Below are positions 17,387 to 58,070 of a DNA stretch of 64,000 nt, in pieces (position 1 is the first letter of the stretch; each line of letters begins with the position of its first letter). Made by a program: the position numbers and the translations under genes. The notes under the pieces are model-generated. The model was not told the DNA's origin, searched no databases, and saw only the letters and a list, made by a program, of their open reading frames with translations. The DNA is taken from the NCBI GenBank assembly GCA_973895155.1, contig OZ316892.1:15912940-15976939 (forward strand), in the 5' to 3' direction. This DNA is from Marsupella aquatica (Eukaryota > Plantae > Marchantiophyta).

Positions 17387-18401
17387 ACTATGGTTTCACT
17401 CTCTCTTCCCTCGAATGTTTGGTCACAACAAATCAGTTGTTATTCATAGTTGATCAGCCTCTTAGCTCCTTGAGCTGCCACTGTCGAACTGCCCCTCTAG
17501 AGATTAAGAAACCTAGCTCACCCTCAATCAATCAATCAATCATTTATTCAATCAATCCTTCATCTTAAGTAACCCTAATTATCTATTCTCATTTCTAAAT
17601 TCCTCGACCCATGGCTGCCCTTCTGCTCGCCTCCCTTAAGCTCTCAACCCTAAACAAACCTATGGCCCTCAATGATCGTTCTCCTTGCTCTTCTCTAACT
17701 CTTGTCTTATCTTCATTTTCCCTTTCTAGCTTTGTCTCACTCAAACCCCTATTCTTCTCACGTTCAACAGTTTCTAATGGCTTTCCCATACACTAATTGC
17801 ATGTCCCTAAAACTAATGATCCGCGAGTTCCCCAATATGGTCGCCACTCTTGTTCGGGGACCGGTTTAGAGCGATGTGAAAACTAGATTTCTTAATATTT
17901 TGGGTATAACCACCGTGCTAGCAAATAGTAAATAGATATTCTCATACGAGCCAATTTTGCCTCGTACAAGCAAAATTTTGTCTCGTACAAGTAAACAAGT
18001 TCCTCGTATGAGCATATCTATTTACTCGTATGAGTTTCTGTTTTCTTGTATGAGTTTCTGTTTTCTTGTATGAGTATATTTTTTTCTTGTATGCATTTCA
18101 GTTTCTTCTCTTCACGGTATGTAGCGTCCATATATGCAATAATTGTGCGGACAATATTATGGTGGGTCCCACCATTGTACAACATCAGAGGAAATTTCTT
18201 GACGATTTCACACAAGGACTCCAATATATTGCCACGAAATATGAAGTCGAAACAAAGTCATACAATACTAGCGCCCGACGCTAGTATTGTATTAGACAAA
18301 AAAACAACACTTTAAGAACTCACACTTCTGCCCGTTAGAAAAGACAAACTACAATTGTAGCTGTTCAACGATAAAGCAACAGTCTATGTTCTCGTTCCCA
18401 A

Positions 18402-21400
18402 CTACCTATCAAGTATGTAACGGACTTCTCCCAACGTTAGAATTGGCTGGCTACATAATGTCGAATCGAGCACATCCAGTTTGAACACATTCTTGAACAC
18501 CCAATACACATGTTTGCAAGGCATGTAAGGCTTCCGATAAGTATGCCGACGGTAGAAATCCTCGCAAGAGCAACATGGGAAACAACATATCTGAACCCAA
18601 TAAGAGGCGACTGATCTCTCATGTTCATGGGTCCGGATACAAAACTGTTTCCCCGACGCATTTCCACTCGTGATCTCTCTCTCCAATGACGCTCATCACT
18701 TCTTTTTCAGAGGCTTCCATTTTCTTCAAATGTGTTTGGGTAAGATGCACTCTTTGCAAGCATTTCTTCCCGTTCCTTGAAGCGCACCTCACAGATGGGT
18801 CAGTTAGGTTGATCCTCTCCGGGAAAAGATTGACATCAATCCATAACGCAGAAGCAACGGTGCTTTGATTTCATCTCCACGGCCTTCGGAGAGAATAAGT
18901 CCTTGTTCTTTCAAAAATTGAGTCTCTGCTCCAGAAAGATTGGTCCCTCTGGCAATTGGGAGATGTGAAGGAACATTGGGAATGTTCAAGACTCCTCTCC
19001 TTGTTGTGCTTTGGTGACAGTGGTTGTTGGGGCAAAACCATATCTGATCGTTATAAGGTTGCCCCCTGAACATTCTGCATCCTCTCACGGAAATTGCAAC
19101 AACACCATCTGGATTCGGAAGGCCAACCTTCTTTACTCGATTTTGACATTCATCACGACTACCTCCCCGTCCAAGTGTTCCGTTACACACTGGACCCGCA
19201 CCCCATTTTGAGGTCCGACGCAACTGCCAGGCACCGGGAGGTACTTCACTTTCCATTGGGGAAACTGAATGACAATATGCAGTCTTGACAGGTCTTGCAG
19301 GCGTCACTGGTGGGACAGAGGATCTTGTTGCTCGACGCGTAGGTGTGTCAATGACCACAACTTCCTCAGAAGCATCGCTTTCTGACAAATTATGGACCGC
19401 ATCAATTCCACCGGCTGAAGGCGTAGAAGGCATTTTCTCAAAATCAGTGGAATGCAGGTTTCTCCTTTTCAAACCTTTTGTATTTGGTGAAGTAACAAGG
19501 ATGGTATCATGCCTATGCGAGTCTTCTGCCGAGACGTTCCCAGTTGCATGTCCTTTTCGTTTCACCGATCGAGTTACAACATCACCATTCAATGGAACGC
19601 TTCTTTCCAAATCAAACTCAACAGCGTTCGACAGGAGGAGATTGGTGGCTTCCTCAAAGAGACGCGGTGACCCCGCCAGGTCCGCCGATCTGAAGGCAAG
19701 CTCAAAAATAGTTGGGCCAGTTCCTCTGCTCAATCCCCTTTTGTATGTAGTATAAGTAGCAATTTGAGCAACCGCTCTATTTTGGTCTGTTTTGCATCCT
19801 TCAAACAGACCAACCTTTTTTTCTGTTGCCATGCTTTCATTCCAGCATGCCTAGATTCCAAACCAGTACAATTAGGAATCATCCCAGCCTCTTCGGCACT
19901 CTTGCTCTAAAACATTGCACGCAAGGGTTTAGTACATGTAAGAAATTGCACACAAAAGTGGCAACACAATGGAAATAACAGTAGCGCCAGACGCTAATAA
20001 ACTGATGATGATATTCCATGTAAAGAACCATTTAACACAGAATAAAGGTAGTCCTTACATCACTCATAGTCCAAACGGATTATTAGCGCTCGGCGCTACT
20101 ATTGCGGATAAGGAACTCTTCTATCTCACACATGCTTCACTAGCGCCGAGCGCTATTAATGGGAACATGCATCCTAGAGCAGTGTATAACTCACCAGTCT
20201 TATGAAGTTCCCCCATTGTCTCCATCGGACAACCCACCAAGACAGCCACCCTTGCAGCATCCAAAGTTTGCTTGAGTGACAATTGCCAGACCTCCACCAG
20301 TCATCGATTTCCCTCGAGATTCGATATGCTTTCAAGAAAGTTGGCGCGTTCCGAAGATGATCCCACATCTCCTTGTGCTCTCCGTGCTTTCCATCTTTTA
20401 CACCTTCTCGGGAATGACGATGAAAAGATTGGAAAAAATGAAAGGCATCTGATCTTTCTCGCTCTGGGTCGGGTACACCGTCAAAGAACACGTTTCGAAC
20501 AACATTCCAACCAGCCAGAGCATTGTCCGCCATGAATCCCCGAATTGTAACATCCTATAAACCATTTTCATCGGCAACCTCTAACATCAAACGCCAGGCT
20601 CTCTCCAGAGATTTTGCATCTTCGGCCTTTAGCTCACAAGTGAATATGGTGCAAAGTGCCCGGTAATGATGATCATATACATGGGCATTGAAAGTAAGCC
20701 AATCTGCCGTGCTTCGATGCATCACGTCAAAACTTACCCATGAACCCTCTAATGACCCACCAGGTTTCATTCTTTGGAGCAGGTCCAGACCACTCCCGTC
20801 ACCTTTTACGGTCATTTTAAAGATATGAGCACTCTCATCCCAACAGCCTTGACCAGGGAGCAAGAACCTATGAAGAAAAGGCAGTCGGATACACTTTTGC
20901 ATCCTCACAAGAAATTCCAGTTCCCCTTTCCCCTTCTGATCTTGACGGACACTCCTTAACACGGATGCAAACTTTTGAGGAGATGTGACGACCATCAGGG
21001 ACTCCCAGATTTCCTTCTCTTCTTCAAGAGAGATTTCTTCAACAGAGGCCTCGCAAAATGTATTCGTCAGTGTCTCAGTCGCAGAGTTTTTAATCCTTAC
21101 TGGGGATGCCATGGGGTTTGCAGTGAATCCCTTCTCCAGATGAGACCTTGCAACCTTTTCTGCCTCCCTCGAAAAGACCCGTCGACTGGGATGATTGTAA
21201 AATCCCATATGAACAGCTAGTCGCGACATGTGGGCCAAAGACTTAACGTCAACTTTCGCAGATGGATAGATGTAGAACATTAGAGCAGGGCAGGCCTCAA
21301 CGCACATCGGAGGTTCGGAGCAATGGTGACAAACAACTCCACCTTCGGAGATCAATTCCCCAACTCGGAATGGGCCCGAAAGTTTTGGGGTTCTTGCCCA

Positions 21401-22195
21401 CATCTCATTATTTCGAAACTTGTTGTCTTTCCACCATGGACAAGCATTATTTTGACACTGCAGCGATCCCGTACACTGGACTTTCCCAAAATCCCACATT
21501 TTCTTCGGAAGAACATTTGAAGACGTTTTCACAATCCGAGTCCAATAATAACAATCCTTACCACGATCCATATCTTTCAAACGTTCACCTTTTGCGTTCA
21601 CACAGTCTACCGGGGGTAACTCAAAAACCACATTCCCATTGTAAGATGTGGGAAGACTAGGCACTACGTGATGAACAAAATCACTCCCCCTTATAAACCG
21701 AGACAATTCACTATGACCTTTGGATTTCAAGATTGTATCCATTGCACTCTGCCGGTACACAGTCAAAGGCACAATCTTTTCTCGATCCGCATTAGACTCC
21801 TTTTTAACCTCGGATGGGTAAACTGGAATCTTCTCTCCGAGAGTAGTTGTTGCTTGCTTATCATCTCCAAAACTTTCCGAGAGTTCGATGACATCGAGTT
21901 CAGCCATTGTGGGAGGATGAGTACAGGAGGCCCCAGAATCTCTCAAAACAAAAACCTCATATTCTTTCTGAGCCTCCAGAGTCCAATATCTTTGACCATG
22001 AACAACATCGTAGAAAACTGGAGTCTCCCCCAAACAAACCGACACTAACAAGATCGCTAAAATAGACTCCTTGGCGACATCAAATCTCACTCCCAAATAT
22101 TCCTCTGAAACACGCTTTGATTCAGATGATTTGAGGACGGGAATTGTGATTATATCCCGAGTGTCCTTCCTCGTGACAACAATATTTTGAGCCAT
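18402..22195 (-). pseudogene. MULE-type DDE transposase with N-terminal GCM/WRKY-like zinc finger and C-terminal SWIM finger; intron 19907-20194
   Basis: CTGSLQC..C, CHHC...C...C...HMGFYNHP; D1 FDVMH, D2 MADNA, DAFH (C/DxxH motif), E in PNCTGLESRHA after the splice; SWIM CSCEDF...PCKH; several frameshifts and stops. Confidence 0.8.
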
Positions 22196-23380
22196 GGCTT
22201 CAAAAGAGGGATATGCATTTGCCCCGCGCGAAATGAAATATGTTTATCATGAGATTCGAGTACGAGAAGTAAACGTTCCATTCTCATTATAGAGTCGTTA
22301 TAGATTTGGATGCACTCCATCAATGATGTTTTGTCATCTTACTAACGGCAGGATTCAGGTTCATAGTTACTAGCACCTGGCGCTACCTCTAAGTGTAAAA
22401 CACTCTTGGGTGAGGACTATGATCGTTCTTCGAGCGGGGACTCATCACCGAGCAGGCAAGGATTTGCGTGGTATGGATCGAGCGACTCGAATGACGACTC
22501 CGATGCGTACAAGCCAAGTTGGTGGGAAGACTGATTTCCCGTTGTCAGAGCGTATCGTTCGAGTGCTGGAGAGACTTGGAGGATCCATCGAGGTTGATAG
22601 GATCTATTTCCACTCATTTTTTTCCGATAGAAAACCCATATCGTTCCTTCCTCGTATGCCAGATTTCTAGTGTACTGCAACATTTTGTATATGAACGGCA
22701 CAGCCGTTTATTTTTACCTCGGTGTCAATGGTTTTGAATTCAGAAGACCAAGCTTTAATTTCCGGTTCTACTCCCGTGTTTGCATTGTATTTCTGAATGC
22801 GAACCTGATCTATTTCTTTGAAATGGCCGTAAACACTCGTTTGCTGTCAATGTTTTTACTAGCGTTCACGGCGCTATTATGAGAAACAAAGTGTCCGTAA
22901 CATTGTCGTGACATGTCTTATCTTTAAAGTGTTTTTGATAGCGTTGGGCGCTATTAATGAAAGGAATCACAAGTCAGACCTGTTCAGAGTTATTTTTACT
23001 TTTACGAGAAATCAAAAAGCATAGAAAATGTTGATTTCTGAATCTTAAATTAGGCCATAATCCTTATTGAAGGAGTGGTGATGGTCAGAAATTCAATTCC
23101 CTTGCACTTTGAAAACTCCTATCTACTCTCTCTCTAGTTTCAATCTTTGTTAATTCTAGTCTTTATTATTGCACCGTGAATCCTAAGGATTACCCACTTG
23201 AGTTTGTGGTTAAACACTTATGTTAAGGAGATCATTAGAAATCTCTCCAACCTAAGAATGTTGGTGTAAACTTCTCAAATCGTGTTAATTAGGTCTTTTT
23301 GATCTTATCCACTCCTAACGGGAACAAAATCGAGTTGTTAAGGAGTAAATAGTCATTTATCTCTTTATCACCTTGTTACA

Positions 23381-26300
23381 TTTGACGGAAATCATCGATT
23401 GTACTCGTGGTCAATCGTCACCAGGGACAATCTGAACAACTTGAAGTATCATCCTCGTGTGATTTGCGTTATTTTCAATGGTGACAGAGGTTCGCTAGTT
23501 GAGCTCGAGACGGCAATGCACACCGTGAACCAGTAAGTTCTATTCGTTAACTGTTGTTACCCCTGTCATTCATTTTGGACCAAACATGCTTTGCGAAAGT
23601 GTTCATTCCCCAATTTTTGCTAGCGCCCGGCGCTACTAATTCCTTTTCATTGCATCCAGGCTTGGACAAGCAGTCGTCGAGCCTTCCTGGATTCTTGACG
23701 CAGACAGAATTTCCCGAATTCTGTCACGTGATCTTGATCACTATAAGCCACTCATCGACAACGCAAACATGGCAAAGTTTGAGGCGATCCGAAAGAAGAC
23801 GAGAAAGGGGTCTTGGTTTACACATAAAATGCCACAGGATGCTCTCATCTACATTCTGTGTGTGGACAAAATCAAGTCTTACTCAAATCAATTTAAGTCT
23901 GATATGGCTTTAGCCAAAGCTCAAGGGGCTTCTTGGTCAGAAGAGGAGACCACAAAGAGGCATGAGGCAATGATGAAGGAGGTGACCAAAGATTGGTCGA
24001 TCAAAGTGACGAAGATCACCCCTTTACTTCATCCGGATTTTGGAGATTATTTGGGAACCTATGCTGAGATGTATCCCGTAACTGAGAAGAACAAACGGGA
24101 GAAGAAGCCAGACACAATTGCACAATGGATCGAGCCAGGTTGTTTACTGCTGTTTCATACCTGGATCCAAAATTGAGGTGCACCCTTCTAGTAGCCCATT
24201 GCACTCCCGAGATTCGGAAACAGTTTTTCCATCCTGCAAGTGTCAACGATGAGCCTGTGAAGCAGTGGTGCCATACATGGCCTACTTGGAATTCTGTGGA
24301 GGGAATTGCAACTGGAATGCTTCACACTTCCTTCAAACAGATTTCTGACCGGATGCCGGCTGACCGTCTCACAAAGTCTGGGTGTGAGTCAATGGAGGCC
24401 ATGCTTAAGATCATTCTCGATGAATTCAGAAACTTTGGGGATCTTGTTAAGGCAAAATTCTTCAACAACTTGTGGCCTTCCAAATATGCGGACAAGGAAG
24501 ATTACACAGCGGAACTGGAAGAGAGCCAAACGATATCTATACCGGTTTTACATGTGGATGGAGCTTAGATCTCCTGACACTCTGTGGGCATACCCGACTG
24601 CATTTCAGAAATGGGTGTCTATTGAAGAGGGAGACGCTCTTGCCGACCTTTATTTGATGTACCCAGCGGAGGGAAAGTTTCCACCACGTTCATTGTCGGA
24701 GTGGGAGAGACTTCACTGTCCGTGGTACCTCGACACAGACAAATGGGATTTACCGTTCGACGAAGCTGAGAAGGATGCCTTCATGAAGTTGCATAAGTCC
24801 CAGATCCCTGCCAACTATGTGTCTGCAATGAAGCAAGGTCTCCAGTCTGATGTTGATGAATCTGCATCTGAGTTATAGAAGAATTGTGAGTCTCTTGTCA
24901 TGCACGTTGACCAAAGCCGTAAGCCAAGAGCAAAGGCGAAGAATGAGTCAGCTGCACCAAGTGACTCCACAAGGTCCTTCAAGAAAAGTGAGTAGTCTAA
25001 GCGCTTTTTGGTTACTTGTTGGCGCTGCTTATGCAGGAGTTTCATTTGGAAATTCCTTTGATTAATAGCGCTTGGCGCTAGTCTGAAAGGTTGGACTCAT
25101 TCAAGTTTCTGTGCCTAACAGGAGGTCAAAAGTCCGACACGGAGGTCCCGGCTGCCGAAGGGAAGAATGATGCAACTCCTCAGGCATCGGAGGCAAACAC
25201 TGGAGCTCAAGAAACCCCGGATCAAGGGACCCCGGATGGTGCTGGCAAATCCATTGTCCCTGTTGACGCAACTAGCACGAAGAAAAAGAAAAAGAGAGGC
25301 GCCGGTGAGGACAGAGCAGCATCATCTACTCGAGACGTTATTTCCTGTGGACTCCAGAGAGATGTCGGGAATTTTAAGCGAAGGTGTTCTAGACACTGTT
25401 TTGTGGAGTCCAATTTAAACGAATTTTACGATTTGGTATTTAACAAGGGGATGAAGCCCATGTGGGTTACTAAAGTTGAGGCCTGGGGAAAGGAATTGGT
25501 AAAGTCAGGAGACAGAGAGAAGGGAGTAATGCGTGGCGGAAAAGAGAGGGGCTTTGGTGTGGATGCTGGTTTCATCTACATTCCCACTGGATTAAAACCA
25601 ACACTTCTTGATCGGAAGGTTCCCAATGGAACCTTCAGGATTACACTATTCCCAGCTCTCTCTTCCGAGCCATGGAGCCGTTCCTTGCAGACGATGGCCT
25701 ACTTGCAATTTTACACAGAGGAGACTATGATCAGGTATCTGAAGTGATTGCGGCTTGCCAGGATTCTAAGTGTTTCCAGTGTATTTCAACCCACGATGTG
25801 GTCATGACTACACCAATGTATAGGCCCCGATCTGATACTCAGGTAACAATTCCTCTTGCACATACTAGCGCTCGATGCTACTATCAGCATTCGCTATATC
25901 TACAATTCACTTATCTTTCGTAAGGATGAAGGGTTGACTAGCGCCAAGCGCTAATATATGTGTCTGTTTTCTTATACTGCCTTCATTGGGAAACTGTGTT
26001 GCAGATATTCACACTTACTCTTAATATATTTTGCCGCATTTTGACAAAGGGAAGGGTCCCGAAAGACCCCAAGTTCCAGCCACTATCAAATGAAGAAGAC
26101 CCTTCCGTCACTAACATTATTGGGTTTTCGTTGCCGCGACATGACCCGACTCCTGAGCTCCAATTTGCAGGAAATTCACGCTTGCCTGTGGGTTTCATGC
26201 AAACTATTTTGGAATTGGTGACTCTTCCTGGAGATATCGTTATGGACTGGACAGTGGGTTCCGGTAGTACGTTTGTGGCTGGAGATTATTCTGGTCGCTT

Positions 26301-27021
26301 TGTTGTTGGGCTGGAAAATTGGCCAGAGGTTGTTGTTACTTCCGGTAAGGTCTTCCTCGATCTTTTACAGAACAAAGAAGTGGTTGCACCAACTCCTCCT
26401 AAGAAGATTCCTGGAAGTAAGAAGCAGGACAGGCTCCGTGCTATTCTAAATTTTGATTCGGAAGACGAGGATGAGGGTGGCAATGCTTCTCAGCAATCTA
26501 AAGATGATGAGGTGTCGAAGAATGTGGTGGACCTTGGATCTGGAGATGAGGACAGTGAAGAGTCAGAAGAGTAATTTTCTTTAGCTTCTTTCTCTCATTG
26601 TATACTTTTTTCCAAAGAACTCCTCTACTCCCTTTTGTCTAGAAAATTCGCCCGATTTCCCGACTTCGACTAAAGAACTCCAGTTCAAATTCTCAGGTCA
26701 GAGTGGAATCTTTGGAGGCGTTTTCAACTTCGAAGGAACGTCTCTAGGAACGTTGTACAGACCCCGGAGAAGCCATTTGTTCTCCCCTCTTATGCTGAAA
26801 AGGCGGCACGACGGGCAGATTCAGTCAGGACGCTTACTTGGGAGAGTAAGGGTCTTAGACTCAGGAGAGGCTCAGATAGAAAGTTTGTGCAGAATCACTT
26901 TGTAGATGATATTGCAAAATCCAAGTATGTGGACGACGAAGCAGAGTCCACTGATAGATCAGAAAGTAGCGGTTTTGAATCGGGCTCAGAGTCGAGTGGT
27001 GGTTGTGGATCTGGTCTTTAG
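23381..27021 (+). pseudogene. Spliced ParB/Srx-like plus beta-class N4C/N6A DNA methyltransferase-like gene; exons ~23381-23532, 23660-24987, 25122-25842, 26005-26570, 26697-27021; 5' end not found
   Basis: FDGNHRLYSW; motif-IV-like VDAGFIYIPTG; PFLADDGLLAI; motif X/I QTILELVTLPGDIVMDWTVGSGSTFVAGDYSGRFVVGLE; GT-AG introns, three of which were checked and are in phase; last two exons conserved in copy 2; frameshifts inside exons 2 and 3. Confidence 0.7.
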
Positions 27022-27667
27022 TTTTCCTTGTTTTATTTACCCGTTTATGGAGAACGACGACACTCAATAAGAACGCCGTGACGTGTCGGATTAGAGTAGC
27101 GCCCGACGCTATTATTGTAGCCGGTAGTTCAAAGAGGTTTTTATTTGGTTGTTTTCCTTATAGCGCCCGACGCTAGTATAAATGTACTCAATGGCCGCTT
27201 CACGTCCAATATATGTGACAATATTTTCATACCCTTCAGTGTCTTTTTTTGGGTGCACATTTGCTGGTATGAGTTTTGTTGTTTACTGTTTGTTGTTTGC
27301 TGTCACGGAGAGATCCCCCAATATTTTAGGGACTTGCTTGTTTTTGTTTTAGTTCCACTTTTTCTTTTTCTTAATATGTTTCAATCCGTATTAAGAGACT
27401 CTACTTAATACTAATTCGCATTTACCATTTGACCTTTTCTTTCAAACTTAACAACATTAACCTATTCATTAGCTTTGATTCATAATCAGTTGGTAAAAAG
27501 AATGCTTTCTCAAATAATAATTGATTCAACAAGTTAGTTTAGCTTTCTCTATGATATCAACATTTATCTACTATTTTTCAGCTTCTCATTTGTCTTTCGT
27601 TTGTAAACTTCTTTATGTAACTTGTTCCTATTCATAAAGTCATACACTACTCTCAAGTTTTCTTATT

Positions 27668-28138
27668 CAGCTTTTTACTATCCTGTCCCCCAAACTAGCC
27701 TAATTTCATAACCTGCCCCCCAAACAAATTAAATTGCTAAGTTGCCCCCCATTCCGTAGATCCATTGAGGCATACCCAGTACATGGTCCCTGGTGCCACA
27801 TGGCAAGTTCCCACTGGTCCGGGCTAAGCCCTGCCCCTCTACCCCTTCCCCATTGAGGCACTCCCATCGCCAGCCCGAATAGAGCCATCCCGCTCCTGTC
27901 GCCAGCCCGAACAAAGCCCTCCCGCAAATGACACATTTTTGGCCCCTCGCCTGTACTTGTGAGAACCCTGCCCATGCTTAGCCCGGACCAGTGGAAACTT
28001 GCCATGTGGCACCAGGGACCATGTACTGGGTATGCCTAAACAAATCTACGGAATGGGGGGCAACTTAGCAATTTAATTTGTTTGGGGGCACAAGTTATGA
28101 AATTTGGCTAGTTTGGGGGACAGGACAGTAAAAAGCTG
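27668..28138. mobile_element. Mutator-type MITE, 471 bp, ~160-bp TIRs, 10-bp TSD
   Basis: CAGCTTTTTACTATCCTGTCCCCCAAACTAGCC... mirrored by ...GGCTAGTTTGGGGGACAGGACAGTAAAAAGCTG; TTTTCTTATT on both flanks (27658-27667, 28139-28148). Confidence 0.93.
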
Positions 28139-30367: not shown

Positions 30368-30596
30368 ACTGGGTTTGGATTAGATTGATTCCGGGTTAGA
30401 CTGAACTCGGGTTAGCCTAAACTTGGGCTTGGGTTAGGATAGGTAAGGTCGGGTTTGGGCTCAGCTTAGCCTAGGTTAGCGGATAGCGGGTAGCGGCCTA
30501 ACCCGAGACCACAGGTTAGCTCTACTTGGGTTAGATAGGATAGCTAGGTTAGCCAAACTCGGGTTAGCTATGTAACTCGGGTTATCGCAGCAATGA
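30368..30596. repeat. Cluster of degenerate (CTC)GGGTTAG repeats, possibly a hAT-like subterminal array or an interstitial telomere-like relic
   Basis: About a dozen GGGTTA/GGTTAG-type units, ending in CTCGGGTTATCGCAGCAATG. Confidence 0.5.
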
Positions 30597-34496: not shown

Positions 34497-35831
34497 CTTG
34501 TCCCTTTAACCCTTTCTCAGGACCTTGTCATATTATTTTTTCCATTTTTTAAATGTAACAGACTGTACAACTATCTAAGTCGGTCCACCACATGTACTAT
34601 CTAAAAGCAATTCAATGTAATGTTGTTTGAAAATAAGTATATAGCTTATGTACTAAGTATTTAGCCTTTCTCACTCCTATATTCATTTGTTTCATTTTTG
34701 GAAATACTTCTGCAGGGAAAGTAGTACTTAAGGTACCTTAATTTTACTCTCTTTAGTTATGAATTAGTCATACCTGAAAGTATTTCTCCAAAGCATAGTC
34801 TTACCTAAACTTTAGGAAGGTGAACCAATGGTTGTGGGTGCTATCCGGGTGCTATTTGGGTGTTATGTTTTAAAAGTTGCTTTTTGCAAATAAATCAGGT
34901 AGGACTAAAACAATTGTTTGATGTAGAGACATGAATTGCCATATGATTTTGATAGTTAATTTTGTGGTTGTTGCACCAACATTGAGCTCAAAATTATAAG
35001 GTCTGCTTTAACATTTGTTACTATGTGCATCCTATATGCTCATTTTTATGAATTCAATCAATGCCCTGTGTACTAAGCTAAAGAATAAAAATTGTTGTTT
35101 AAGTGGCATTGTGTAAATTGCCTGAAATACTCTACCTAGGTGCTCACATCTCAAAAAGAAATTCACAAATGACACCAAGGAAATACTCCCTTCTAAAGTG
35201 AAAATTTCCAAAAATGTTTTTGAAAAAATAGTATCAAAGAATTGTAAGTACTACAATTTATTTGCAAAAAAACAACTTCTTAAAAATAGCACCCAAATAG
35301 CACCCGGATAGCACCCAAAACCATTGGTTCACCTTCCTAGAGTTCAGATAAGACTATACTTTGGAGAAATACTTTCAGATATGAGTAATTCCAAAAAATT
35401 GAGAGAAAATAACTAAGAGAGCAAAAATTACCTACCTTAAGTACTGAAACTGATGCCCACATAGATCCCTAGGTTTGTGAAAATGCTCCCATATATTTTT
35501 GCAACTCAGTCTATTCACAATGTGATAGGGAATATTCTCAATTAGTCCATCCCAATTGTATGGTTTGTGTCTAGGGTCCATGGGAGCACCATTTTTTCTT
35601 AAGTACTACTTTTTTTGCAAAGGTATTTCAAAACATGAAAGAAATGAATATGGGAGTGAGAAGGGCTAGATACTTTGTACATAAATTATATACGTATTTT
35701 CAAACAAGAGTTCGCTCAATTACTTCTAGACAGTACATCTGGCAGACTGACGTAAATAGTTGGACAATATGTTACAATTAAAAAATGGCAAAATAATATG
35801 ACAGGTCCTGAGAAAGGGTTAGAGGGACAAG
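34497..35831. mobile_element. Foldback/MITE-like element with ~400-bp degenerate TIRs; right arm interrupted by an ~165-bp insert
   Basis: CTTGTCCCTTTAACCCTTTCTCAGGACCT mirrored by AGGTCCTGAGAAAGGGTTAGAGGGACAAG; 34823-34895 mirrors 35256-35330; CTTAAGTACT duplicated around 35446-35598. Confidence 0.8.
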
Positions 35832-39990: not shown

Positions 39991-42697
39991 ATGGGATCCC
40001 CGGCGGATCTGGCCTTAGGATGCCGAGCAGAGTCGCCTATCGCAACAACGGGGAACCTATTCAAGGTTGTCCCATCGAGCAGGGACAAGGTAGATCGAGA
40101 TCGAGCTCAAATGTTGGACGAGTACCTGAAGGCGCTAGAAGATGAGAGGCGCAAAATTGAAGCGTTTAAGCGGGAGCTACCCCACTGCATGCAGCTTCTT
40201 GACTACGGTTAGTGTTACAGTAACTACAAACTCTGCGTCAAGCATCAGATGATGTCATTTGGATCAGGCGTGCAAACCACGTCTAATGTTATCAATAAGT
40301 CCCTTGTTTCTTCTGCCACTCTATTAATTCTTACAGAGTCTTGCCTGCCACAGACGTTTCTCCTGCATTCAATTGACGTGAACTTTCGTGAGAAGTAAAC
40401 ATTGGAAATTGTTGTTCTTGATGGTGGAATCATATCATATTAACGCTTCTTTCGTGGAACATTGACAGCCATCGACGCCTCAAAAGAGAATTTGGTCCAG
40501 TCTCCTTCTTGTTCCCCAGCACCTCCTCTCGTATCCCTCATCGGAAAAACTACCAAAACTTTGGGCTTATTTGGGAAGGAGGTAGTGCAAGAGTTTCTCA
40601 AGAGCAGGTGGGAGACCACAAGGAAGGACGACATCGAAGCAGAAGAACAGGAAAAACCGAGAAGGTCTAGCGGGAGCGCCGCCGGTGATAAGCCGACGTG
40701 GATGGCCGAAGCCCAATTATGGACCCAACCCTCCTTGAGATCTGATCATTGGAAAGAGGTAATAGCTTATCGTATACATGTTTTGCCCAATATGTTACCT
40801 GAGGAATTTTTCCTTGGTCTAGATGGAAAGATGATATTTAGACGTCCTACCATAACAGACACTTAGCATCATTGGTTTGTTGGTTTATTTAGTCTTCATT
40901 GGTTGTTGTTGAGAGCTAGCCTAATGTTTTCTGATATACTGCAGAAAGAGTCATCAACAGAGGATTCGGTGAGACCGAAAAAGGATTCCGAGAAAAGCAC
41001 GCTGACAAGCCCTGCCCATCTCTTCAGTAATAAGCAAAGGCCCGGCGGTGCCTTTATACCTTTCGTCAAAGAGAAACCAGCGCCAGGTCCCGTCATCAGA
41101 GCAAAGCCTGGGGTTCCCGATTTCATGCTCTCATCTGGGGAGAGTCGACCCACTACCGCTCTCGGTTTTGGTGCGGTTGACTCTGAGGTTGGAAGCGTTG
41201 AAATCAGTCCTAAAACAACGGATATCAATACACCCATATCTTACGGGAAAGAAACAAGGGAAAGAGTAAATGGAGTAGGAAGTACTTATTCTGGAGGTAC
41301 AGGAAGTACCACAACAGGTGCTGGCAACGCTCAAAGAAAAGCACGCCGATGTTGGTCTCCAGAGCTTCATCGCCGCTTTGTCAGTGCTTTGCAACAGCTT
41401 GGGGGTTCCCAAGGTAGTTGTTTGTTGCTTCCTCTAATTCTACATTCTGTCTTCCCAAATCTGATCGTTTCTGTTTTTGTTCGTCTTGAAAGCGATTTGT
41501 TTCCTTGTGTTTGTGCCCGTCATTATTTTGAATTAGTATTAGTATGATAGAGGATAAAATCACACTCAACATATGCTGGGCTGGGATGAACAGTTGCCAC
41601 TCCGAAGCAGATACGAGAGCTCATGAAGGTAGATGGGCTCACCAATGATGAAGTCAAGAGTCATCTTCAGGTAATCAGAATCATCTTTTCACACAAAATA
41701 TTTTTAATCAGCTTTCAGACCTCTTAGCTTAAACGAAGTGGACCTCTTCACCCTTGTCGGGGCAGTCTCTGCCCATAGCTAGAAGGCTCCACACTTCGGC
41801 TTGTTCTCGTCGAGCAAGCCTACGAGCTTTCCTTGTTTTGTCATCTTGTGCTTTTCAAGCCTTTCCTTGGAAGTTGTGTGCCTTTCCGGGCTTCACAATA
41901 TGAGGACTCCCATATGTTTAGGATGATATGTAATTGTTGACCTGAGAGAGAAGGGTCGCTTTCGCAGTGCAGAATTTGGGCTGGGGGTGTGCAGCGAAAG
42001 AAGTTGCCATAGCTGCTTTCTCCTCGTTTCATTCTACCGCTAAATTTTCAGCATAGTTTGGGGGCCTTCTCTTTCACACATTCAGCATGTTTAACTGCAT
42101 GCCAGTCGTGTCAGGGTGACGATTTGACAACGGAGACTGTTTGTGCAGAAATATCGACTACATACACGGAGGCCCAGTCCTACACCGCAAGGTCCTCAAC
42201 AAAATCCGCCACAGTTGGTTGTGTTAGGTGGTATTTGGGTCCCTCCCGAGTACCAGAACGCAGGAATGTATCATGATCCTTCCAGTTCTGTCCAACAAGA
42301 ACCCGTCTTCTGCCAACCCACGATATCTCAAGAGTTCTACTCCCAGTTGCACCCTTCTGTCCAAATGGAGCTGCATCGGTCTCCATCCCAGAACTCTCCG
42401 CAAGGCCCTTTACAGTCAACTAGTAATCTGTCCAGTGGTGCACACCAAACAAGTGGTGAAGGTTACAGAGAAGATAGTGCGGGAGAGGATGGAAAATCAG
42501 AGAGTTCTAGTTGGAAGGGAGAAGAAAACTTGCGAGAGAGTGCAGACAAAGACACTTCAGGGAAGAGAAATGGCAGTAGTAGCAGCAGCCAGGACGAAGA
42601 TGAGGCTGATGATGGGAGGGATGGTCAGGTCAGGCTTCAGCTTGAAATGTCATGTTCTAGTGTACATAATGTAAAGACTGAGCCGTCATTCGCGTGA
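39991..42697 (+). CDS. HHO: NIGT1/HRS1/HHO-family GARP (G2-like) Myb transcription factor; exons 39991-40207, 40469-40758, 40945-41413, 41594-41670, 42149-42697
   Basis: N-terminal coiled coil [22 protein letters not shown]; [57 protein letters not shown]; [12 protein letters not shown]; in-phase GT-AG introns; no stops. Confidence 0.96.
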
Positions 42698-48650: not shown

Positions 48651-50330
48651 GGAGGTGTTCAAGTGATTAGTGTGCTAAAGACTGGGATGATGGGCTAACC
48701 ATGGCTTTGTAGGCCCTCACATTGCTGCAGAGCAATAGTCAATGGGTCCATGGGCAACTCTTAGCCATGTACAACCTCAGGTTGAGGAGCTAACTGAGTA
48801 GGTGCAGCCCATAAGCTCTCATTTGCTTGCATGATAGCCAACTCCTCTTCATCTTCTTCAATCCAATCGTGCAATGAATGATTGACATAGGAAACGGTAT
48901 GCACCTCTTTCAACACACAGTAGTGAGCACTAGGGGTATGTTCCCCATGTAAATCCAGTGGAATGTAGCCCAAGCACATGTCATCAGTTTGGCAATCAAC
49001 CTGATGGTATGCATGCTCAAACCAGTTATCAATGGTAAATCCTGGCGGGAACTAAGCTCTAGGTCTTGGCAAGTAAACAATGGAGTAGTGAGAAATTGGT
49101 GTGCCATGCCTGAAATATGAAATGGAGATTTTACCATATGATTAGTTTTTGGTGATGCACCTGGTCGATGTACATTTCCCACTACTGAATTCAGAGTTGA
49201 GGCACCTTTTGGCAAAGAAGCTATATCACTCCTACCTCCCCTTGCCAACAAGGTAGCCTCTGAGGTTGGAGTAAGTGGTCAAAATAACTGTGGTATGGTA
49301 GCTCTGGCACCCCTAGACTGTGTGATAGGACTAGATCCGGAGGCAAGGCCTCAGTTGCGACTACCCTCCGGTTTGTAGTTGTGGCCACACTAGCTTGCTG
49401 GTATGCAAAGTATGAGGGGCAAAATGAATCTGAGAATTCACCAGTAAGACCAGATGTGGGAGTGGGACCAGCAACGTACTCTCCAGCCATGGCATCTTAA
49501 GGGAGGTTGTAGAAGGACTGTGGAAACGTTGTAATATTGCTACTTGCAGGAGCACAAACCACAGGTTGAGCATGACCTCCTGGTTGTACTGATTTTCCTC
49601 GGAGGGATGCCAATTGAGCGCGAACTGCCTCCAGTAGCTTGAGCTTGAAGAACCTCCTTCTGAGCTTTCTCTCTTCTTGGCATTCTTGTTGAAACCAGCA
49701 GGTTTGTTGCACGATGAAGGAACAAAGGCAACACTCCTCTTGGACTGTGCAACGGGAGAAGGGGCAACGGTGGGAGTGGGCTGGTGCCTCAAGTTCTTTC
49801 ACTTTGGAAACTTCCAAATGTCAGACTTCCCACTAAACAATAGAGCTCATCCATAGGGATATCACATTCATTAGCCTTATGATCCCAATTCCCATGGTAA
49901 TTACAAAAAGGGACAAGCATAGGTGCAGAATGGGCATGCTTAACTCGTTGGGGTTGTACTATTGACCTACCAGATGTTGGGGTAGGAACCAAAGGCCTGG
50001 TTCATGGTCCACGATGTGACTGGCCTGATAATGAGCATGGGCAAGCTCAATCTTCTCTGCAATTTTGTACACTTGAAGAAGAGTGTAAGAATCCCATGTT
50101 GTGCAAAGACCTGATGTAGCACCTGCAAATGGAGTGAAGGGTTACTCTCAAGCACATCAAGATAACGGTTTGCAACCTCTTGGTCTGTGATATTGTTGGT
50201 ATCCTCCTTCAACTTGAACAATCGTTGGTACATCATCTTCAATGTTTCATCCTTTTGTTGCATGAATAGCAAGTTGCATTATCTGCTCTGAGCTCTTCAC
50301 TGGAAACTTGAAAGAACTCATGCACCGGAT

Positions 50331-50670
50331 GAGGTGTTTACAAAAGACAGCAAACAGAAAACATGATTTAATAACAGAAACTGGTAACAGGAAAAAAAAT
50401 TGATAACAGGAAAATGGGTGGAAATTTCTTTTTGAAATTATTTTTTTGAGAAAAAAAAAGTTGTTTTTTTTTGTCGACCAGTTTTTTTTGCTAGCGCCCA
50501 AAGCTAGCCAAAAATGTTGCATTGTTAATTTTTTTGGAAATAACATGTTTTAGGAGATATTTTTAAATTGTCATTTTTCCCGGTAACAGTGATTTTTTCC
50601 TGGTAATAGCATATTAAAAACAGGAAAAAAAATTCCTGTTTACCTGTTTCCTGTCTCCGTCGCTATACCC
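50331..50670. mobile_element. Non-autonomous mini-derivative of the MULE-like family (340 bp)
   Basis: 8-bp direct repeat CACCGGAT on both flanks (50323-50330, 50671-50678); its ends match the two different ends of copy 2 (56279 and 50731); one palindrome-like motif at 50492. Confidence 0.8.
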
Positions 50671-51379
50671 CACCGGATCAAGATACACTGGTGTATCAAT
50701 TGTGCGAGAGATACCTATGGTAGCTAGAGCGGGTATAGCCACTGAGACAGGAAACAGGAAAACAGGAATTCTAGTACCAGAAAAACAGATGTTGTTATCA
50801 AGAATATGTTTCCGATACCAGGAAAAACTGGTCTTTGCAGCAGGATTATTACTTCATTACTTCTAACCAAAATTAGCAATATTCACTGTGCTTCATTTAT
50901 ATTCTAGAGCTTAGAACCAACTAACATGCCAACAATTGTTGTCTGATGATATCAATGTGAGTATGGAATCATCAACAACTTGTTGAATATATGTCCCAAA
51001 AATTCCAAACACACAAACATTTACCCTTGAATGCCAAAGGAAAAAACATCAATATGGTAGGTCCCACCCTAATTCACTTCATATTATATGCACACAAGAA
51101 GACCAAAAACCAGGAATGAAAACCAAGGACAATATCAAAGACCACAAACGGAGGACTAGCGCCTGGCGCTAGCTAAAATAAAAACAAGCAACACACCCCA
51201 AAAATGACAATTCATGAATGGACAATGTTGGAAACCAAACTTTAAAAAAATCATTTCAAGTGGATATACCATGAAGTAAATCACAATAAGGAAGACTTTC
51301 ATCCCAGCGCCAAGCGCTAACATAGAACTATACCATTGTAATACGACAAAAAAACAATATAATCGTTTTGAGTATAGGA

Positions 51380-54360
51380 CCGTGCGCGTTTTCCCTCTCC
51401 AAGATCAGTCGAACTTCTCCAATTGTGAGAATTGGTTGGTCAAAGTAGATTCCTCAACGTCTAGTTTGAAAACGGTCTAGAAAACCCAGTACAAATGTTT
51501 GCAAGGCATATATGGCTGTCTGTGAGAATGTTGACGGTAGAAATCCTCACACGAACATGTTGGGAAAATGCAAATCTGCACAAAGTAACTATTCGGCGTT
51601 CTTAGATTCTCATGCGTCTATACTTTGAATTGCTTCCCCCATGAGTTCCCTATAGAAACATCCCACTATCCCTGGACGGACATGGTCTCTTTTTGTGCAG
51701 ATTCAATCCTCTTCATGTGACCATGGGTCAAGGTCGATCGAGGAACCGTGTTCTTCCCATTCTGACTTCGGAGACGAACTGTGGGTTCCAGAAGATTGAC
51801 CCTCTCTGGAAATAAGTTGACATTGATTTGAAGGTCAAAAAGTGATGGTGGAGTTAGAGGACCGTGTCTTCCTTGGACTATAGGTAGTCCCTGGTCAACA
51901 AGATACTTCATCTCAGCTTCCAGAACATTTGTTCCTTTTATAGCAGGAAGAACATCAGGGAAGGAGGGCAGGTTTACTACACCACGACCGGGATGGCTCC
52001 TATATACTGTTTGGGAGAAAACCATCAATATTATTGTGTAATCATATGTTTGTCAAAATAAATGACTATATCTTGTCAGTCTATGAAAATTGATTACATT
52101 CTTTGGATGTGGTGCTCAGGAATTGAATGTTCAGGAATGGAATTGTATTGTACTTCTACAAGGGAAACCGACTTGCATATTACTAGCGCCAGGCGCTATT
52201 ACTCACCAAGCGAATAAAATTTCCCCATTGCCTCCAACGCACAACCCACCATGATATCCAACTCTGAAGCATACAAAGCTTTCCGGGGTAAAAATGAAAA
52301 GCGTCTGTCCGCTCCCGTTTAGGGTTTGGGTGCCCTCCAAAAAAAACATTCCGAACTGCTAACCATTCGGCTTGGGCATTGTCTGCCATAAAGCCATGAA
52401 TAGTTGGATTATCTAACCCATTCTCTTTGGATACCTCAGTCATTAGTCTCCAAGCCTTCTCAAAGGACTCTGTGTCTTCAGCTTTTAGCTCGCAAGTGAA
52501 TATCGTACACAACGCACAGTAGTTGTGATCGTAAACATGTGCGCTGAAAGTCACCCAATCCTTTGTCATTTGTTTCATGACATCGAAGCTTACCTAGGGA
52601 CCTTCAAGGCTCCCTCCAGGTTGCATTTGCCGCAAAAGATCCACCCTTGACCCATGGCCTTTGGAAGTCATCTTGAATATGTGAGGCCTGTCTTCTTGAG
52701 ACCTGGAAGGATGGACCTCTGGAGAAAAGGCATGTTGATATTCTTTTCAAAGTCAAAGTCAAAGTCAAAGTCAAATTCTAAGCTCCACGACGACCCAATG
52801 AGTCAAGGGAGCTGTGGCAAAAAAGCCAAATACAAAGCAAAGAATTGAGCCAAATGCTCATGTGAGGATCTCTACATCCTCACATGAGCATCGTTTCCTA
52901 TCCACTGCCATGATATACAATCCAAGTTGCTTTGGTGGCAACCTAAATAGATCATGCAGATCAGAAACAAGGATTTGATGTGCTATTCGAACCTCCTCAT
53001 ACCGTCTACATGCTATGAATACATGATATTCATTCTCAATGCTGCCACTATCACAAAGTCTACACACCCTATCCTGTCTCCTAATTCCCTTCCATCTACC
53101 CTCCTCTACCTCCAAGTGATGTGAGCTGAGTCTATATCTAGCAATCACTTGTCTCAATCTCATAGAAATGGGAGCTCTAAGATACTCTTGTTCTTCATAC
53201 AACACATCATGGGGTTTACATCCCTCATAAAATATTGTAATCTAGGGCTAGGATCACTCCAAAGTTTTCTAATAGCTTTATCACGCAAGAGTGACCAAAG
53301 CTTTTGATATCAAACTAGAAAATCCAACTCTCCATGAACTTTCTGGTCCTGCCTAACACTCCTGAAAAGAGATGCAAACTTCTGTGGAGTAGAAACTACC
53401 ATTAGAGACTGGAAAATTTATGTTTCTTCAATATCTTGAATATCACCCAGGCTCTCACACAAAGATTGTACAAAAGATGTCGTCGCTACATTTTTAATCC
53501 CGGCAGGCGTCGAAGTTGGATTACCTTCCAATTTCTTTTTTATGACATCTTCAACCACCATTTCCGCACTCCGAGAAAATACCTTGCGACAAGGATGGTT
53601 GTGCATACCCATATGAATCGCTAGGTGAGACATGTGACTACAGGTATCTGAGTCAAGCAAAACTTGAGGATACATATAAAACAATCTTGCAGAGCATGCC
53701 TCTACACAAAAAGGGATCTGCTGGCAATAATGACAAATGACTCCACCCTGGTCAATGAACGATCCAACACGGTGTGGCCCTCCAAGCTTAGGGGTACCAT
53801 CCCAGGCCTTTGCATTACTCCTCTTCTTTTGGCGGAAATAGTCACAAGTTTTATTCCTGCACTCAATAAATCCAGTACATGTAACTTTACACCAAATTCC
53901 TAGTATTTCTTGGGCTGCACGTTGCAGTGGTAGGAAATATTCTAGTCCAAATGTAGCAATCCTTGGACCGGTGCATGTCCCAGAGACGGGATCCTTTTGA
54001 AAGAATCCCTGGCGATGGAGGCAACTCAAACACTATGTTACCATTGTACTTTGGCGGCAAACAAGGTACTTGTTCATGCCAAAATTTTCCAGCCGCAATG
54101 AACCTCGAAAGTTTACTAGACCGATTTGACTTCAGCAACGCGTTCATTGCACTTCTCCGATACACAATCTGGGAATGCGACGATGGCTTCTCCTCCTTGA
54201 CCAAAACCATGTCAGGCGCTAGCGGCTCCACAAGGGGGATCCTTGGTGGCTCCTCCTCATCACTATCAGAAAGAGTGACCACATCCACCGGAGCCCTTGC
54301 TGGGGATTGATGGGGAGTGCCCATGTACAGATCAAAGACCGATATCCAGGTACATGTCAT
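51380..54360 (-). pseudogene. MULE-type transposase, copy 2
   Basis: YNGNIVFELPP, CHYCQQIPFCVEAC, HMGMHNHP, HVYDHNY, GFMADNA, TDAFH, WWVVRWRQWGNFIRL with the same intron donor, SWIM remnant ~51480-51580. Confidence 0.85.
52749..53303 (-). mobile_element. 5'-truncated RTE/RTEX-like LINE inserted in the copy-2 transposase
   Basis: Nearly identical to 44607-45192 apart from one indel; (TTTGAC)4 tail; TTGATAT on both sides as a possible TSD. Confidence 0.9.
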
Positions 54361-54470
54361 TACATCACTTCTTTATTGTTTGTGCCCGACGCTACTTTGG
54401 TGTTTGTTGTAGTCCTCGAGACATTGCCCATCGATTGATAATTTTACAATTTGGATTGCGATGCGTGCAG

Positions 54471-55375
54471 GTATTTACCCTCAGGCTTGACATATTTTGC
54501 CGGATTTCAAGGGAAAAGGTACCAAAAGAATCCAAGGTTTAAGCCTTTATCAATAACCAAAGATCCTTCGATCTCTAACTTGATTGGGCTTCCAACTTTG
54601 AAGACAGATCATTGCAGTCGATTATAGAGCTTTTTACTCTCCCCAAAGATATTGTCCTTGACTGGACTGTAGGTTCAGGAAGCACATTCATTGCTGGGGA
54701 TTTTTCTGGTCGTTTTGTGATTGGGTTGGAAAATAGGCGTGATTTTGTTGAGTCTGCATCAAGGGTTTTCTTAGAACTTCTTGATCCCAAACATGTTCCG
54801 ATACTGCCTCCTCCCCCGACCCATATAAGTGGTTGCAAAAAGAAAGATAGGCTCTCATCTGTTCTGAACTTTGATTCCGATGAAGAGGAAGATACTCCTG
54901 GAGATGTTGGAGGTGGCATAGAGAAAACCCAGGAGGAAGAATCTTTGGAGAAGAGCAAAGACTCGACGAGTAAATTTTGTCCAGTAAGCTTCTTTATCCT
55001 TTTGAGAGTTGTTTACAATTCTGGGTTCTTATTCTCTCTTCCCAAATACTTATTTTTTTCCAGTTTACTGGATCAGGTCAGAATGGAATCTGAGGAAGTG
55101 TTTCCAACTCCGGAGGAGACTAGCTAGGAATGTAATTGTCACTCCTGAAAAACCGTTTGTTTTGCCCTCATACTCCAAAAATGTCGTGAGGAGGGTTGAC
55201 AAAATTAGAACACTTTGTTGGGAAACAAAAGGTCTTTGTCTTCAGAGGGGAGCAGACAGGAAGTTCATGAGGAACCCTTATATAGATGATCTCAAAGAAA
55301 GTACATTGATGACGAGGCCGAGTCCACAGACAGATCTGAAAGCTCTGGATCTGAAACATCGGATAGTTTATAAGT
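54471..55375 (+). pseudogene. Methyltransferase-like gene, copy 2 (last two exons)
   Basis: SIIELFTLPKDIVLDWTVGSGSTFIAGDFSGRFVIGLENR; final exon SEWNL...TPEKPFVLPSY...RGADRKF homologous to 26697-27021. Confidence 0.8.
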
Positions 55376-58070
55376 AGCAAGGGGGCTAGCTTCAAATACC
55401 TGATTGAAGGTTTCAATATGTAAACTTTTTATCACAATGGCCAATTTTTGGCCCTTTTAAGTTTAAAGTGACTTCATTGTCACTAGCGCCAGGCGCTCCT
55501 CAAATACACAGTCACTCTTGTATTTTAATTTCCTAGCCTTGAAGTTGATTTGTAAAGCCGTATCCTCAGTACAAATGTTTGCTAGCGCTAGGCGCTCCCC
55601 AATTTTCTGAGGGGACTTTGTCGTGGAGTCTCTCTAGGTTTTGGTTGCAAAAATGTTTTTGTTTCCATTTTGATTTTGTCGTATTCGATGAACGGTCTTT
55701 CAACGGTCAGGGTTCAATGTCCCTTATTTATGGATTTTGTGTTGCGGTAGTTTGGTATTACTTCAGGACCTTTCACATTATCCCCGGCTTTCATGCTTGC
55801 GCATTTTGTTCGAAGTGCTATGAAATCACTTCAATCTCATTTTCTTTTCAATGGGAAACCGCGGTGAGGGCTTGAGGGATATTTGGGGAATACGTGGTAG
55901 CGTCAAGGATGCGAGAGACCCAAAGCAACTTCATCCAACTCAAGTACTAGTTAACTGTACATATAGTTTTGATTGCTTGGACCCACATCTTCAATCATAG
56001 TTTACGTAGTCTGATTTTATATAGGCCGCCTTTTGTTTTCTTGTTGGATGCATAACATTTCATAACCCCCTTCATTAAATATCCTCCTAGTGTGCAATTG
56101 GTATATATTATCAACTCTTTGCAGCGCCCGGCATGAGCATTATCCTTGGAGGATAGTGCTCATTTCCATGCAAAAATTCACAATTTTGATACTTTTACCT
56201 TTTTGACAGCGAGAACTCTTGTTACCAGTTTTTGTTATTAACTCCTGTTTGTTGCTTTGGTGTCTTTTGTAAACACCTTGCCTTGGGCCAACGCCTCATG
56301 GTGCACATACCTTGCCAATTGTTTGAATGGAAAGACAACAGTGTAGTGGTTGTACTTGAGCTCCAACTCATACACAACTCTATAAAATGCTACTTTGAAT
56401 TCCCGTAGAGAAATGGTGCCAGGCTGGCCACTAAACTTCCCAATTTTGCTGGATGAGTTGCTAGCCTCCATTCTGTACACTGGTGGAATTGTTGATGTTG
56501 ACAATGGAGCTGGGAATGTGTTGGTCAGAGCTGAAAGGGGTGTACAAACCTGATTGTGGTTGAATAGACAATTGAGAAACCTGATATGATGTAGGTGTTG
56601 GAATCACCTGATGTGAGCTTCCTGCCCCAACAGATCCAGAAGAAGGATTCTGGGTGTGTCTCCTTCTAAATGATCTAGCTGATTTGAGAGGGATAGTCTC
56701 TAACAGGTGTCAGTCACTTTGGAGATGGATGGCACCAGGATCCTTGTTAGAGTCACCTGAGCTCATGCTGATGTGACATGCTCAAAGAGATCACTCAGTA
56801 TTCCTCTAAACTTCAAAATAGAGACCAAATCCCTAAAATCTGCATGAAGGTGTTTCAACTCTTCAACACATATTTCTCTTGCTAATAGATAACAATATGT
56901 GAGATAATCATGAGAAGATGAAGCACTAAAAAACACTCCTAATGAGCCCTTACATGCCCCAAGTCATTGAAGCAAACAGTAAAGATCAAAGTCAGAAATT
57001 TGCAAAATTATCCCAAATTTGCGTTTCAGTGAAGTCAAAATGTTGGCAACTGTATCTCACTTGCTAGAGCTTTGTTTTCAGAGTTCTTATATCAATCTTG
57101 TACGCCTCAATGAGAGCTTTCCAACCATGCTAAAAGCTCCTACTCTCGTCAAATGGTTGAAGAGTTATGACCAGAAGCGCTCAAAATGGCGTTTTGAGAA
57201 CTAACGATGACATGAAAGCTTGTGTTAGGCTTGTCCTAACAAGCGTGCACAGAGCATGGTGGTGGGCAATGATAACCATGCACTCTTGCACGACATTATA
57301 GAGCTTTGCCACTAGATCTTAGATTTTTTACCACGCTCAATACATTATGGTCAGATTAGAATGTTGCTAGATGGAATTATTGTTGAATTGGGGGATTGAA
57401 TCTTTCTACTAGTAGTATCATAATAACCGTTGAAATAGGCTGACAAAGTTCTACAATGCATTGTTTCCCCCATTTCTTACCCCTTAGGATCGCTTTTGCC
57501 TTTTGGGCATGGTTTCCCTCTTTGTGGGGTTCAAGCGGAATAAATGGAAATTTTAAAATTGTTGGTAATGGTAATGGTAATGTATTATAAGCTCCGGGAC
57601 CATGAAAGTCAAAGGAGCTGCCACAAAAAGTAAAGTACAATGCAATCAAAGAAAAGAGCAACCAAAAGAGATTGCTCAGAAGAGGACAACTATGTCCTCA
57701 AAGAAACTATGGACCTAGAGAGCCCTATGGACCTAGAGAGCCCTGAAAGATTTTCCAAACCTATTCTCCTTTCCCTATCCACCGCAAAGATATATCTTCC
57801 AAGTTGTTGAGGGGGCAGACCAAACAATGCATACAAATCTTTCACCAAGATTTGAGATGCCATCCTAACCCCCTCATAAAACTTGCAAGCAATGAATACA
57901 TGATATTCATTCTCTATACTAGAGCTATCACATAGTTGACAAACCCTCTTTTTCCTGTCAATATCCTTCCATCTCCCTTGTTCTACTTCAAGGTGGTGTG
58001 AGCTTAGTCTATACTGAGCAATAAGTTGTCTAAGTTGTACTGAGATAGTGCTAGATAAGTATTCTTGTTC

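Follow-up and report, generated by a model that had tools for sequence, protein, structure and literature searches.

The non-coding DNA of a transposon family in the liverwort Marsupella aquatica holds a short spaced dyad that is supported, judging from its sequence and placement, as a site read by sequence and belonging to this family. The family was studied in a window of 64,000 bp (contig OZ316892.1, positions 15,912,940 to 15,976,939), where it is represented by two copies of a putative Mutator-like element (MULE), here copies 1 and 2, and by one short non-autonomous derivative (mini element). Copy 1 has two divergent genes, one for a transposase and one, the passenger gene, for a protein with a predicted methyltransferase (MTase) fold.

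The dyad and its placement

The window, which sets the genomic scope of the count, was scanned for TAGCGC-NNN-GCGCTA with up to two mismatches. The scan retrieved 19 matches against 0.46 expected, the top count in 100 shuffles being 2, and 18 of the 19 fall inside the one family, which makes up 14,763 of the 64,000 bp (23%; binomial p 5e-11). The sites were chosen by similarity and three have an identical 15-mer, so that they are non-independent and the p values given for the motif are optimistic. An earlier note on this DNA had listed 20 sites in the family and a single near-match outside it, at about 32000; indeed, the motif is present at 20/20 of these sites, 18 of them among the scan matches, and exactly one outside match, at 32000, was found. 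Site 54380 has three mismatches and hence lies beyond the cut-off, and site 22860 has a 5-nt spacer, i.e., 2 extra nucleotides. At 22867, Logan contigs from other copies are 2 nt shorter (4/4 runs aligned there), which gives this site the normal spacing in those copies. The match at 32000 was treated as chance, since it breaks a base that is otherwise invariant across all 38 half-sites.

The consensus over the 38 half-sites is WTRN-TAGCG-YY-N-RR-CGCTA-NYAW, with an invariant core, TAGCG-N5-CGCTA, whose five-base arms include a retained CpG and whose flanks hold a further dyad, T-R-N / N-Y-A. The arms had been described as conserved and the 3-nt spacer as variable: conservation stands for arms of 5 bp (TAGCG/CGCTA), whereas a free spacer is ruled out, the spacer being Y-N-R at every site. 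Other gaps between the 5-bp arms (3, 4, 6 and 8) gave no match in the window. The search pattern for the dyad is written as TAGCGYYNRRCGCTA, with a separate form for 4 bases between the arms.

The avoidance of exons proposed in the same note was confirmed, all 13 copy-1 sites falling in the 30% of the copy that is non-exon (p 1.5e-7), and four of the five predicted introns hold dyad sites, as it had also claimed; the exon map was drawn from reading frames, GT-AG ends and homologues rather than from RNA, and the exons are therefore predicted ones. In the transposase gene, sites were found in the 3' flank (nt 18269-18283) and three times in the intron (19982, 20084 and 20141; nt 19982-20155). 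Three more lie between both genes (22371, 22860 and 22939; nt 22371-22953), and the passenger gene has sites in its introns (nt 23621-23635, nt 25066-25080 and, with two sites at 25866 and 25939, nt 25866-25953) and two in its 3' flank (27097 and 27161; nt 27097-27175), so that both 3' flanks are occupied. The introns of the two copies do not align, as previously stated, and despite this the copy-2 sites stand at matching places; across the 19 sites the flanks have at most 20/44 letters in common. The distance of the dyads from splice sites is not fixed, ranging from 23 to 234 nt. A role as branch point was ruled out by distances of 24-234 nt to the 3' splice site and by the 6/13 copy-1 sites that are outside introns.

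The motif was also found in an independent relative, L001, the lone transposase relative in metagenome contigs (1/29 stretches confirmed), with 62% identity over query residues 322-546; of 71 stretches from viral contigs, none was confirmed as a relative. The transposase intron carries three dyad sites in copy 1, one in copy 2 and three in L001, the latter of the form TATTGC-TAG(C/T)GC-YG-GCGCTA-GCAATA, with identical arms and 4 bases between them, not 5. A perfect hairpin with ~28-bp arms is centred on the middle L001 site (1172-1230 of L001; -57 kcal/mol as RNA). The L001 sites alone have longer common flanks (TATTGC/GCAATA), suggesting local copying.

Co-variation was seen neither between the left and right arms nor between the near flanks, and the arm sequence itself is kept, which argues for reading of the sequence rather than for a hairpin.

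Decay and conservation of the sites

Arm mismatches are mostly C>T or G>A (12/17), in agreement with the earlier note. The CCNGG centre (positions 6, 7, 9 and 10) varies solely by these changes, mostly in a CCG context; in particular, C6>T occurred in 7/10 half-sites where C6 is the outer C of CCG versus 1/28 of the others (p 7e-5), and, because of this concentration, decay of the centre fits a methylated cytosine. Arm CpG transitions amount to 3/76 versus 8/38 for C6>T (p 0.006), the comparison with C7 per half-site giving p 0.11. The proposed decay of methylated cytosines can thus be retained for the centre but not for the arms, and a uniform decay across the motif was rejected, arm CpGs being spared while the centre decays.

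Twenty-three contigs from four runs, aligned over nt 19965-20175, are variable at 32/211 positions. Among the diverged copies, 2/36 arm positions are variable versus 29/166 positions outside the motif (p 0.053), both arm changes being CpG transitions. Loose contig ends carry the dyad with different flanks, showing both C6>T and G10>A.

Across codon junctions, CpG in copy 1 reaches 0.65 of the expected value (58/89.9) versus 0.18 in the neighbouring long terminal repeat (LTR) element and long interspersed nuclear element (LINE) frames (17/97.0; p 2e-7). For comparison, host gene pieces range from 0.51 to 1.06 and the dead copy 2 gives 0.32; the whole L001 contig has an observed/expected (o/e) CpG ratio of 0.81. 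The retention in copy 1 is consistent with periods in which the element was unmethylated. A LINE frame of 950 aa in the same window (nt 58071-60923, minus strand) has a CpG o/e of 0.09, a strong methylation-driven loss in this host.

Element copies, genes and neighbourhood

Copy 1 (nt 17902-27319) is a broken copy with short degenerate terminal repeats, flanked on both sides by the 8-bp target-site duplication (TSD) AATATTTT; in runs X2 and X5, contigs pass from 17893 to 27320, with 8 letters in common at the joint. Contigs 98-99% like copy 1 reach a depth of 278-377 in X1 versus 14 for the flank contig (depth being no copy number) and show indels at all six frameshift places of copy 1, which fits a member of a multi-copy family. 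The 340-bp mini element (nt 50332-50671) has both ends, which match those of copy 2, one decayed dyad (50492) and the TSD pair ACCGGATG / ACCGGATC, identical at 7 of 8 positions. Copy 2 (nt 50731-56278) is deleted and decayed, contains a LINE fragment (nt 52760-53303) and carries dyads at 51157, 51305, 52184, 54380, 55484 and 55583; no TSD was found at 50731-56278. Copy 2 and the mini element form one subfamily, with ~45-70% protein identity to copy 1, and lie adjacent to each other inside a frame (49967-50278, 56238-56603) which we take to be gag-like, from an LTR retrotransposon.

The transposase gene (nt 18400-22195, minus strand) has two predicted exons (22195-20195 and 19906-18400) separated by an intron (20194-19907) and, in copy 1, one stop and three frameshifts. 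In the homologous sequences P0001, P0002, P0005, P0006 and L001 the similarity breaks off at one common RLV/RVV point, and in P0009 it resumes at the same acceptor; the five GT-AG introns of copy 1 were placed from the frames and such homologue breakpoints. The protein has a Cys/His-rich N-terminal part, the residues SFD..MAD..AFH..W..GLES (D..D..H..W..E) and, at the C-terminus, CSC..PCKH (CxCx(n)CxH), which we take to be MULE-type DDE and SWIM-like motifs, respectively, no profile having confirmed them. Pfam, NCBIfam, PHROG and PDB returned zero matches, and the eight homologues found (41-61% identity) are all unnamed. The element is putatively assigned to MULEs on its TSD length and this presumed residue pattern. 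In MULEs the TSD is 8-11 bp long (PMC6446971), and it is 8 bp in copy 1 and 7 of 8 in the mini element; an 8-bp TSD equally fits Zisupton. The ends have only short degenerate repeats, the type of MULEs lacking terminal inverted repeats.

A second motif class is found near the ends: seven 10-bp near-palindromes of the type CTSGTACSAG lie subterminally in copy 1 (nt 17941-18074), with single or few further ones at 27264, 50381-50821 and 56219. They take the form CTCGTAYRAG in copy 1 and CTGGTAMYAG in copy 2 and the mini element. The pattern was picked after reading those regions and is present 62 times in the window versus 48 expected, a small excess; these repeats are candidate transposase sites.

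The passenger gene (nt 23381-27021, plus strand; predicted introns 23533-23659, 24988-25121, 25843-26004 and 26571-26696) consists of a DGNHR piece, a long middle exon, exons for a beta-class amino-MTase fold and a conserved last exon, its 5' part being missing. A foreign repeat fragment (nt 23003-23380), marked by a rise in depth and by loose ends at 23003 and 23381, interrupts it just before DGNHR; the word FDGNHRLYSW stands at 23381 behind this insertion, the upstream half is missing in the window, and other copies run on upstream of 23381 with different letters. The repeat has high depth, ends in TTACA, possibly as an LTR end, and stands in place of the 5' part of the gene. DGNHR is a putative ParB/Srx-like word, for which profile and structure searches gave no match. 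The last exon (26697-27021 and 55075-55360) is ~55% identical between the copies, matches no family and is basic, possibly a DNA-binding part.

The MTase part matches Pfam N6_N4_Mtase (E 1.9e-6), its last exon scoring over the cut-off in both copies. HMMER against 1.84 billion proteins gave 77 matches, 28 of them at E <=1e-10, and, of the candidates from a word-based search using that exon, 0/172 were confirmed. The homologues include P0009, P0018 and P0026, those with a species name coming from Calypogeia fissa and Riccia sorocarpa; P0026, the only one with an Atlas answer, falls in methylase clusters of the Atlas (0.92). A model of P0018, made from an alignment of 39 rows, four of which are canonical bacterial-type MTases (pLDDT, the predicted local distance difference test, 72), matches CcrM (Foldseek E 4e-12, Z 19.0, root-mean-square deviation 4.1, 219 aligned) and other beta-class enzymes, including N4CMT (Z 16.8). 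Its fold and motif order, IV, target recognition domain (TRD), I, are those of a beta-class amino-MTase. The single-sequence model of P0009 (pLDDT 36) is unusable, and the middle region of the passenger protein is without a fold model.

In motif IV, (D/N/S)PP(Y/F/W), the first residue takes the proton and the last stacks the base (PMC7544214), and changing SPPY to APPA abolished the activity of N4CMT (PMC8885841). The passenger protein keeps a glycine-rich motif I (DWTVGSGS) and has YIPT as motif IV, which tblastn places opposite FLPN and CLPN. Five family homologues extend over this site and read FLPN, FLPN, ALPT, CLPN and DPPT, so that the first catalytic residue is gone in 4/5 (4/4 of the close ones) and the aromatic in 5/5. 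With motif IV gone here and in the close homologues, the protein is predicted to be a pseudo-enzyme and self-methylation is unlikely; an active methyltransferase is not supported. A more distant homologue, P0056 from Riccia sorocarpa, keeps DPPT and may be an intermediate between active and dead forms.

By the model, fold and motif order of the passenger protein are as in CcrM, M.PvuII, bdelloid N4CMT and Marchantia DN4MT1. N4CMT and DN4MT1, however, keep SPPY and are host genes, whereas the passenger protein has lost the catalytic motif and sits inside a transposon. Fungal TET/JBP transposons (PMC12730594) likewise bear a DNA-modification fold, of another enzyme group and in another element class, and DIRS1 retrotransposons (PMC4738411), again another element class, an inactive MTase domain, likewise predicted dead. 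In the available parts of these two papers no internal dyad array is mentioned for either element, and none of the MULE groups tabulated in that of PMC6446971 is given an MTase passenger. Literature searches covering titles and abstract openings turned up no paper on the element or the motif; homologue surveys in the work on Marchantia N4-methylcytosine (4mC) could mention these passenger proteins.

Several features of the window lie outside the family. A sequence like a miniature inverted-repeat transposable element spans nt 27668-28138 (arms 85-96% complementary), and nt 34497-35831 has long inverted arms with 29-nt ends that are 97% complementary. Tandem arrays of ~180 bp are found at both window ends (351-1122 and 63272-64000) and, together with a 209-bp match at 98.6% between 1-209 and 61410-61617, suggest two copies of one larger repeat. 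A host gene at nt 40444-42697 has what is presumably a GARP/MYB-like motif. Beside an LTR pol, a 442-aa open frame of unknown kind (nt 6742-8070, minus strand) is strongly CpG-depleted.

Candidate readers of the dyad

We give about even chances to the passenger protein being a non-catalytic reader of the dyad that counters the silencing of its own element. A dimer would read the two TAGCG half-sites, whose centres are 10 bp apart; MTases of the beta class form dimers (PMC7544214), which suits a dyad site. The predicted dead beta-class MTase, possibly with a ParB-like head, would mark the element as self, and its occupancy would hold off host cytosine methylation and silencing, so that methylation of the element would at times be lower. 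Protection may act in cis as well as in trans, one site having been kept in the 340-bp derivative, and the transposase would use the separate 10-bp repeats near the ends.

The closest parallel is with VANDAL transposons and their VANC proteins, VANC21 binding introns, intergenic and terminal non-coding DNA (PMC5735166). Like them, the family has a putative Mutator-like nature with weak repeats at its ends, carries an accessory gene and concentrates a short motif in intronic, intergenic and terminal non-coding DNA (PMC5735166, PMC10398659). VANC motifs, however, are 8-9 bp long, non-palindromic, tandem and fast-changing, whereas here a CpG-containing spaced dyad is dispersed and common to subfamilies with ~45-70% identical transposases. 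The accessory protein also differs in its prokaryote-type MTase fold and has no VANC-type Pfam match, no direct alignment with VANC having been made. The family would thus work like VANDAL/VANC without being a member. The VANC-like self-recognition suggested in the earlier note is upheld for the placement in introns, intergenic DNA and flanks and for the keeping of the motif in L001 and diverged copies; it is not supported as regards methyltransferase activity, the ParB part stays putative, and the arrangement, a dispersed dyad and not a tandem repeat, is unlike that of VANC motifs.

Several points weigh against a passenger protein that reads the dyad and protects the element. The test of conservation among copies is borderline, conserved stretches being likelier to be aligned, and the centre decays like methylated cytosine, so that the dyad sites appear to have been methylated at times. 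The retention of CpG can also be explained by age, perhaps partly, or by the copying mode. VANC motifs change fast between families and the dyad does not, and a rigid dimer does not predict the 4-base spacing or the long hairpin of L001. For the ParB-like head, the 51-aa DGNHR piece gave no match in Pfam, PHROGs, NCBIfam, PDB and plasmids, and only E 3-7 in phages. Moreover, full readings were limited to copies 1 and 2, the mini element and one locus from elsewhere (L001).

It is possible, at a clearly lower probability, that the transposase binds the dyads instead, folding the element for transposition or activating its own copies as in AtMu1. The AtMu1c transposase shows sequence-specific DNA binding and lowers the methylation of its own family (10.64898/2026.08.24.746577); the transposase here has its Cys/His-rich N-terminal part, and the mini element retains a dyad and holds one TAGCG half-site at its right end. 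Copies 1 and 2 have not kept that half-site at their corresponding ends, and known transposase binding is terminal, the AtMu1 transposase and TnpA binding at termini (10.64898/2026.08.24.746577), whereas here the dyads are internal and the termini hold another repeat, of different form in copies 1 and 2. The passenger protein, as the proposed reader, would still resemble Spm/TnpA and AtMu1 in that an element protein reads a family motif and lowers methylation (10.64898/2026.08.24.746577); those systems have terminal motif clusters and a transposase-derived protein, against internal sites and an MTase-derived candidate reader here.

Doubtful, too, is a fusion of ParB and MTase acting as a parS-like system, in which a dimer would load at the dyads and spread as a CTP-gated clamp, the dead methylase domain shielding cytosines from host methylases. 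In bacteria, several 15-16 bp parS palindromes lie near a gene with a DGxHR-type word. Here the setting is instead a eukaryotic transposon, the ParB domain is presumed from that word, the site sequence is unrelated and no ParA was seen. If true, this would add an anti-silencing system whose ancestry is quite apart from those of VANC and TnpA, and would place a clamp of the ParB/parS type on a eukaryotic chromosome.

Binding of the dyad by a host transcription or chromatin factor, for which the element would have gathered sites for its expression, is unlikely: the constancy of the motif between subfamilies is in line with a host protein that evolves slowly, but outside the family only 1/19 matches was found in the window, with its invariant base broken, and the L001 spacer differs. 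No plant factor is known to us to have this site, no motif library having been searched for one.

We regard as quite improbable a motif without a specific protein, whether it would work as a hairpin of RNA or single-stranded DNA or be a trace left by fold-back copying. Most sites can fold as an RNA stem of 5-6 bp, a 2- or 3-nt spacer is tolerated and L001 has its long hairpin. The arms, however, keep their sequence with no pair swaps, and complementarity within sites is no higher than in shuffles throughout the arms and the six adjoining flank positions, one of eight farther positions tested exceeding them (p 0.007, uncorrected). Furthermore, five sites have a broken 6-10 pair on the transcribed strand and three a wobble pair there, splice distances spread over 23-234 nt and many sites are outside introns.

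Finally, a passenger protein that actively writes 4mC or N6-methyladenine on the dyad as a self mark is very improbable, since, despite the beta-class fold, the remaining glycine-rich motif I, the DPPT of P0056 and the 4mC writers that exist in Marchantia and bdelloids, motif IV is YIPT here and FLPN, FLPN, ALPT and CLPN in four close homologues, with the proton-abstracting D/N/S and the stacking aromatic gone.

Sequence-specific self-protection of transposons has been worked out for few angiosperm elements, namely VANDAL, Spm and AtMu1. The family described here has a similar layout with an unrelated prokaryote-type passenger and a defined site of 15-21 bp, and its named homologues come from two liverworts. 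Protein and site are directly testable, in a lineage known to have adopted bacterial-type 4mC methylases. If the passenger protein is indeed a non-catalytic dyad reader, anti-silencing would have arisen again, from a pseudo-enzyme, and the protein-site pair may offer a targeting module that keeps DNA unmethylated.

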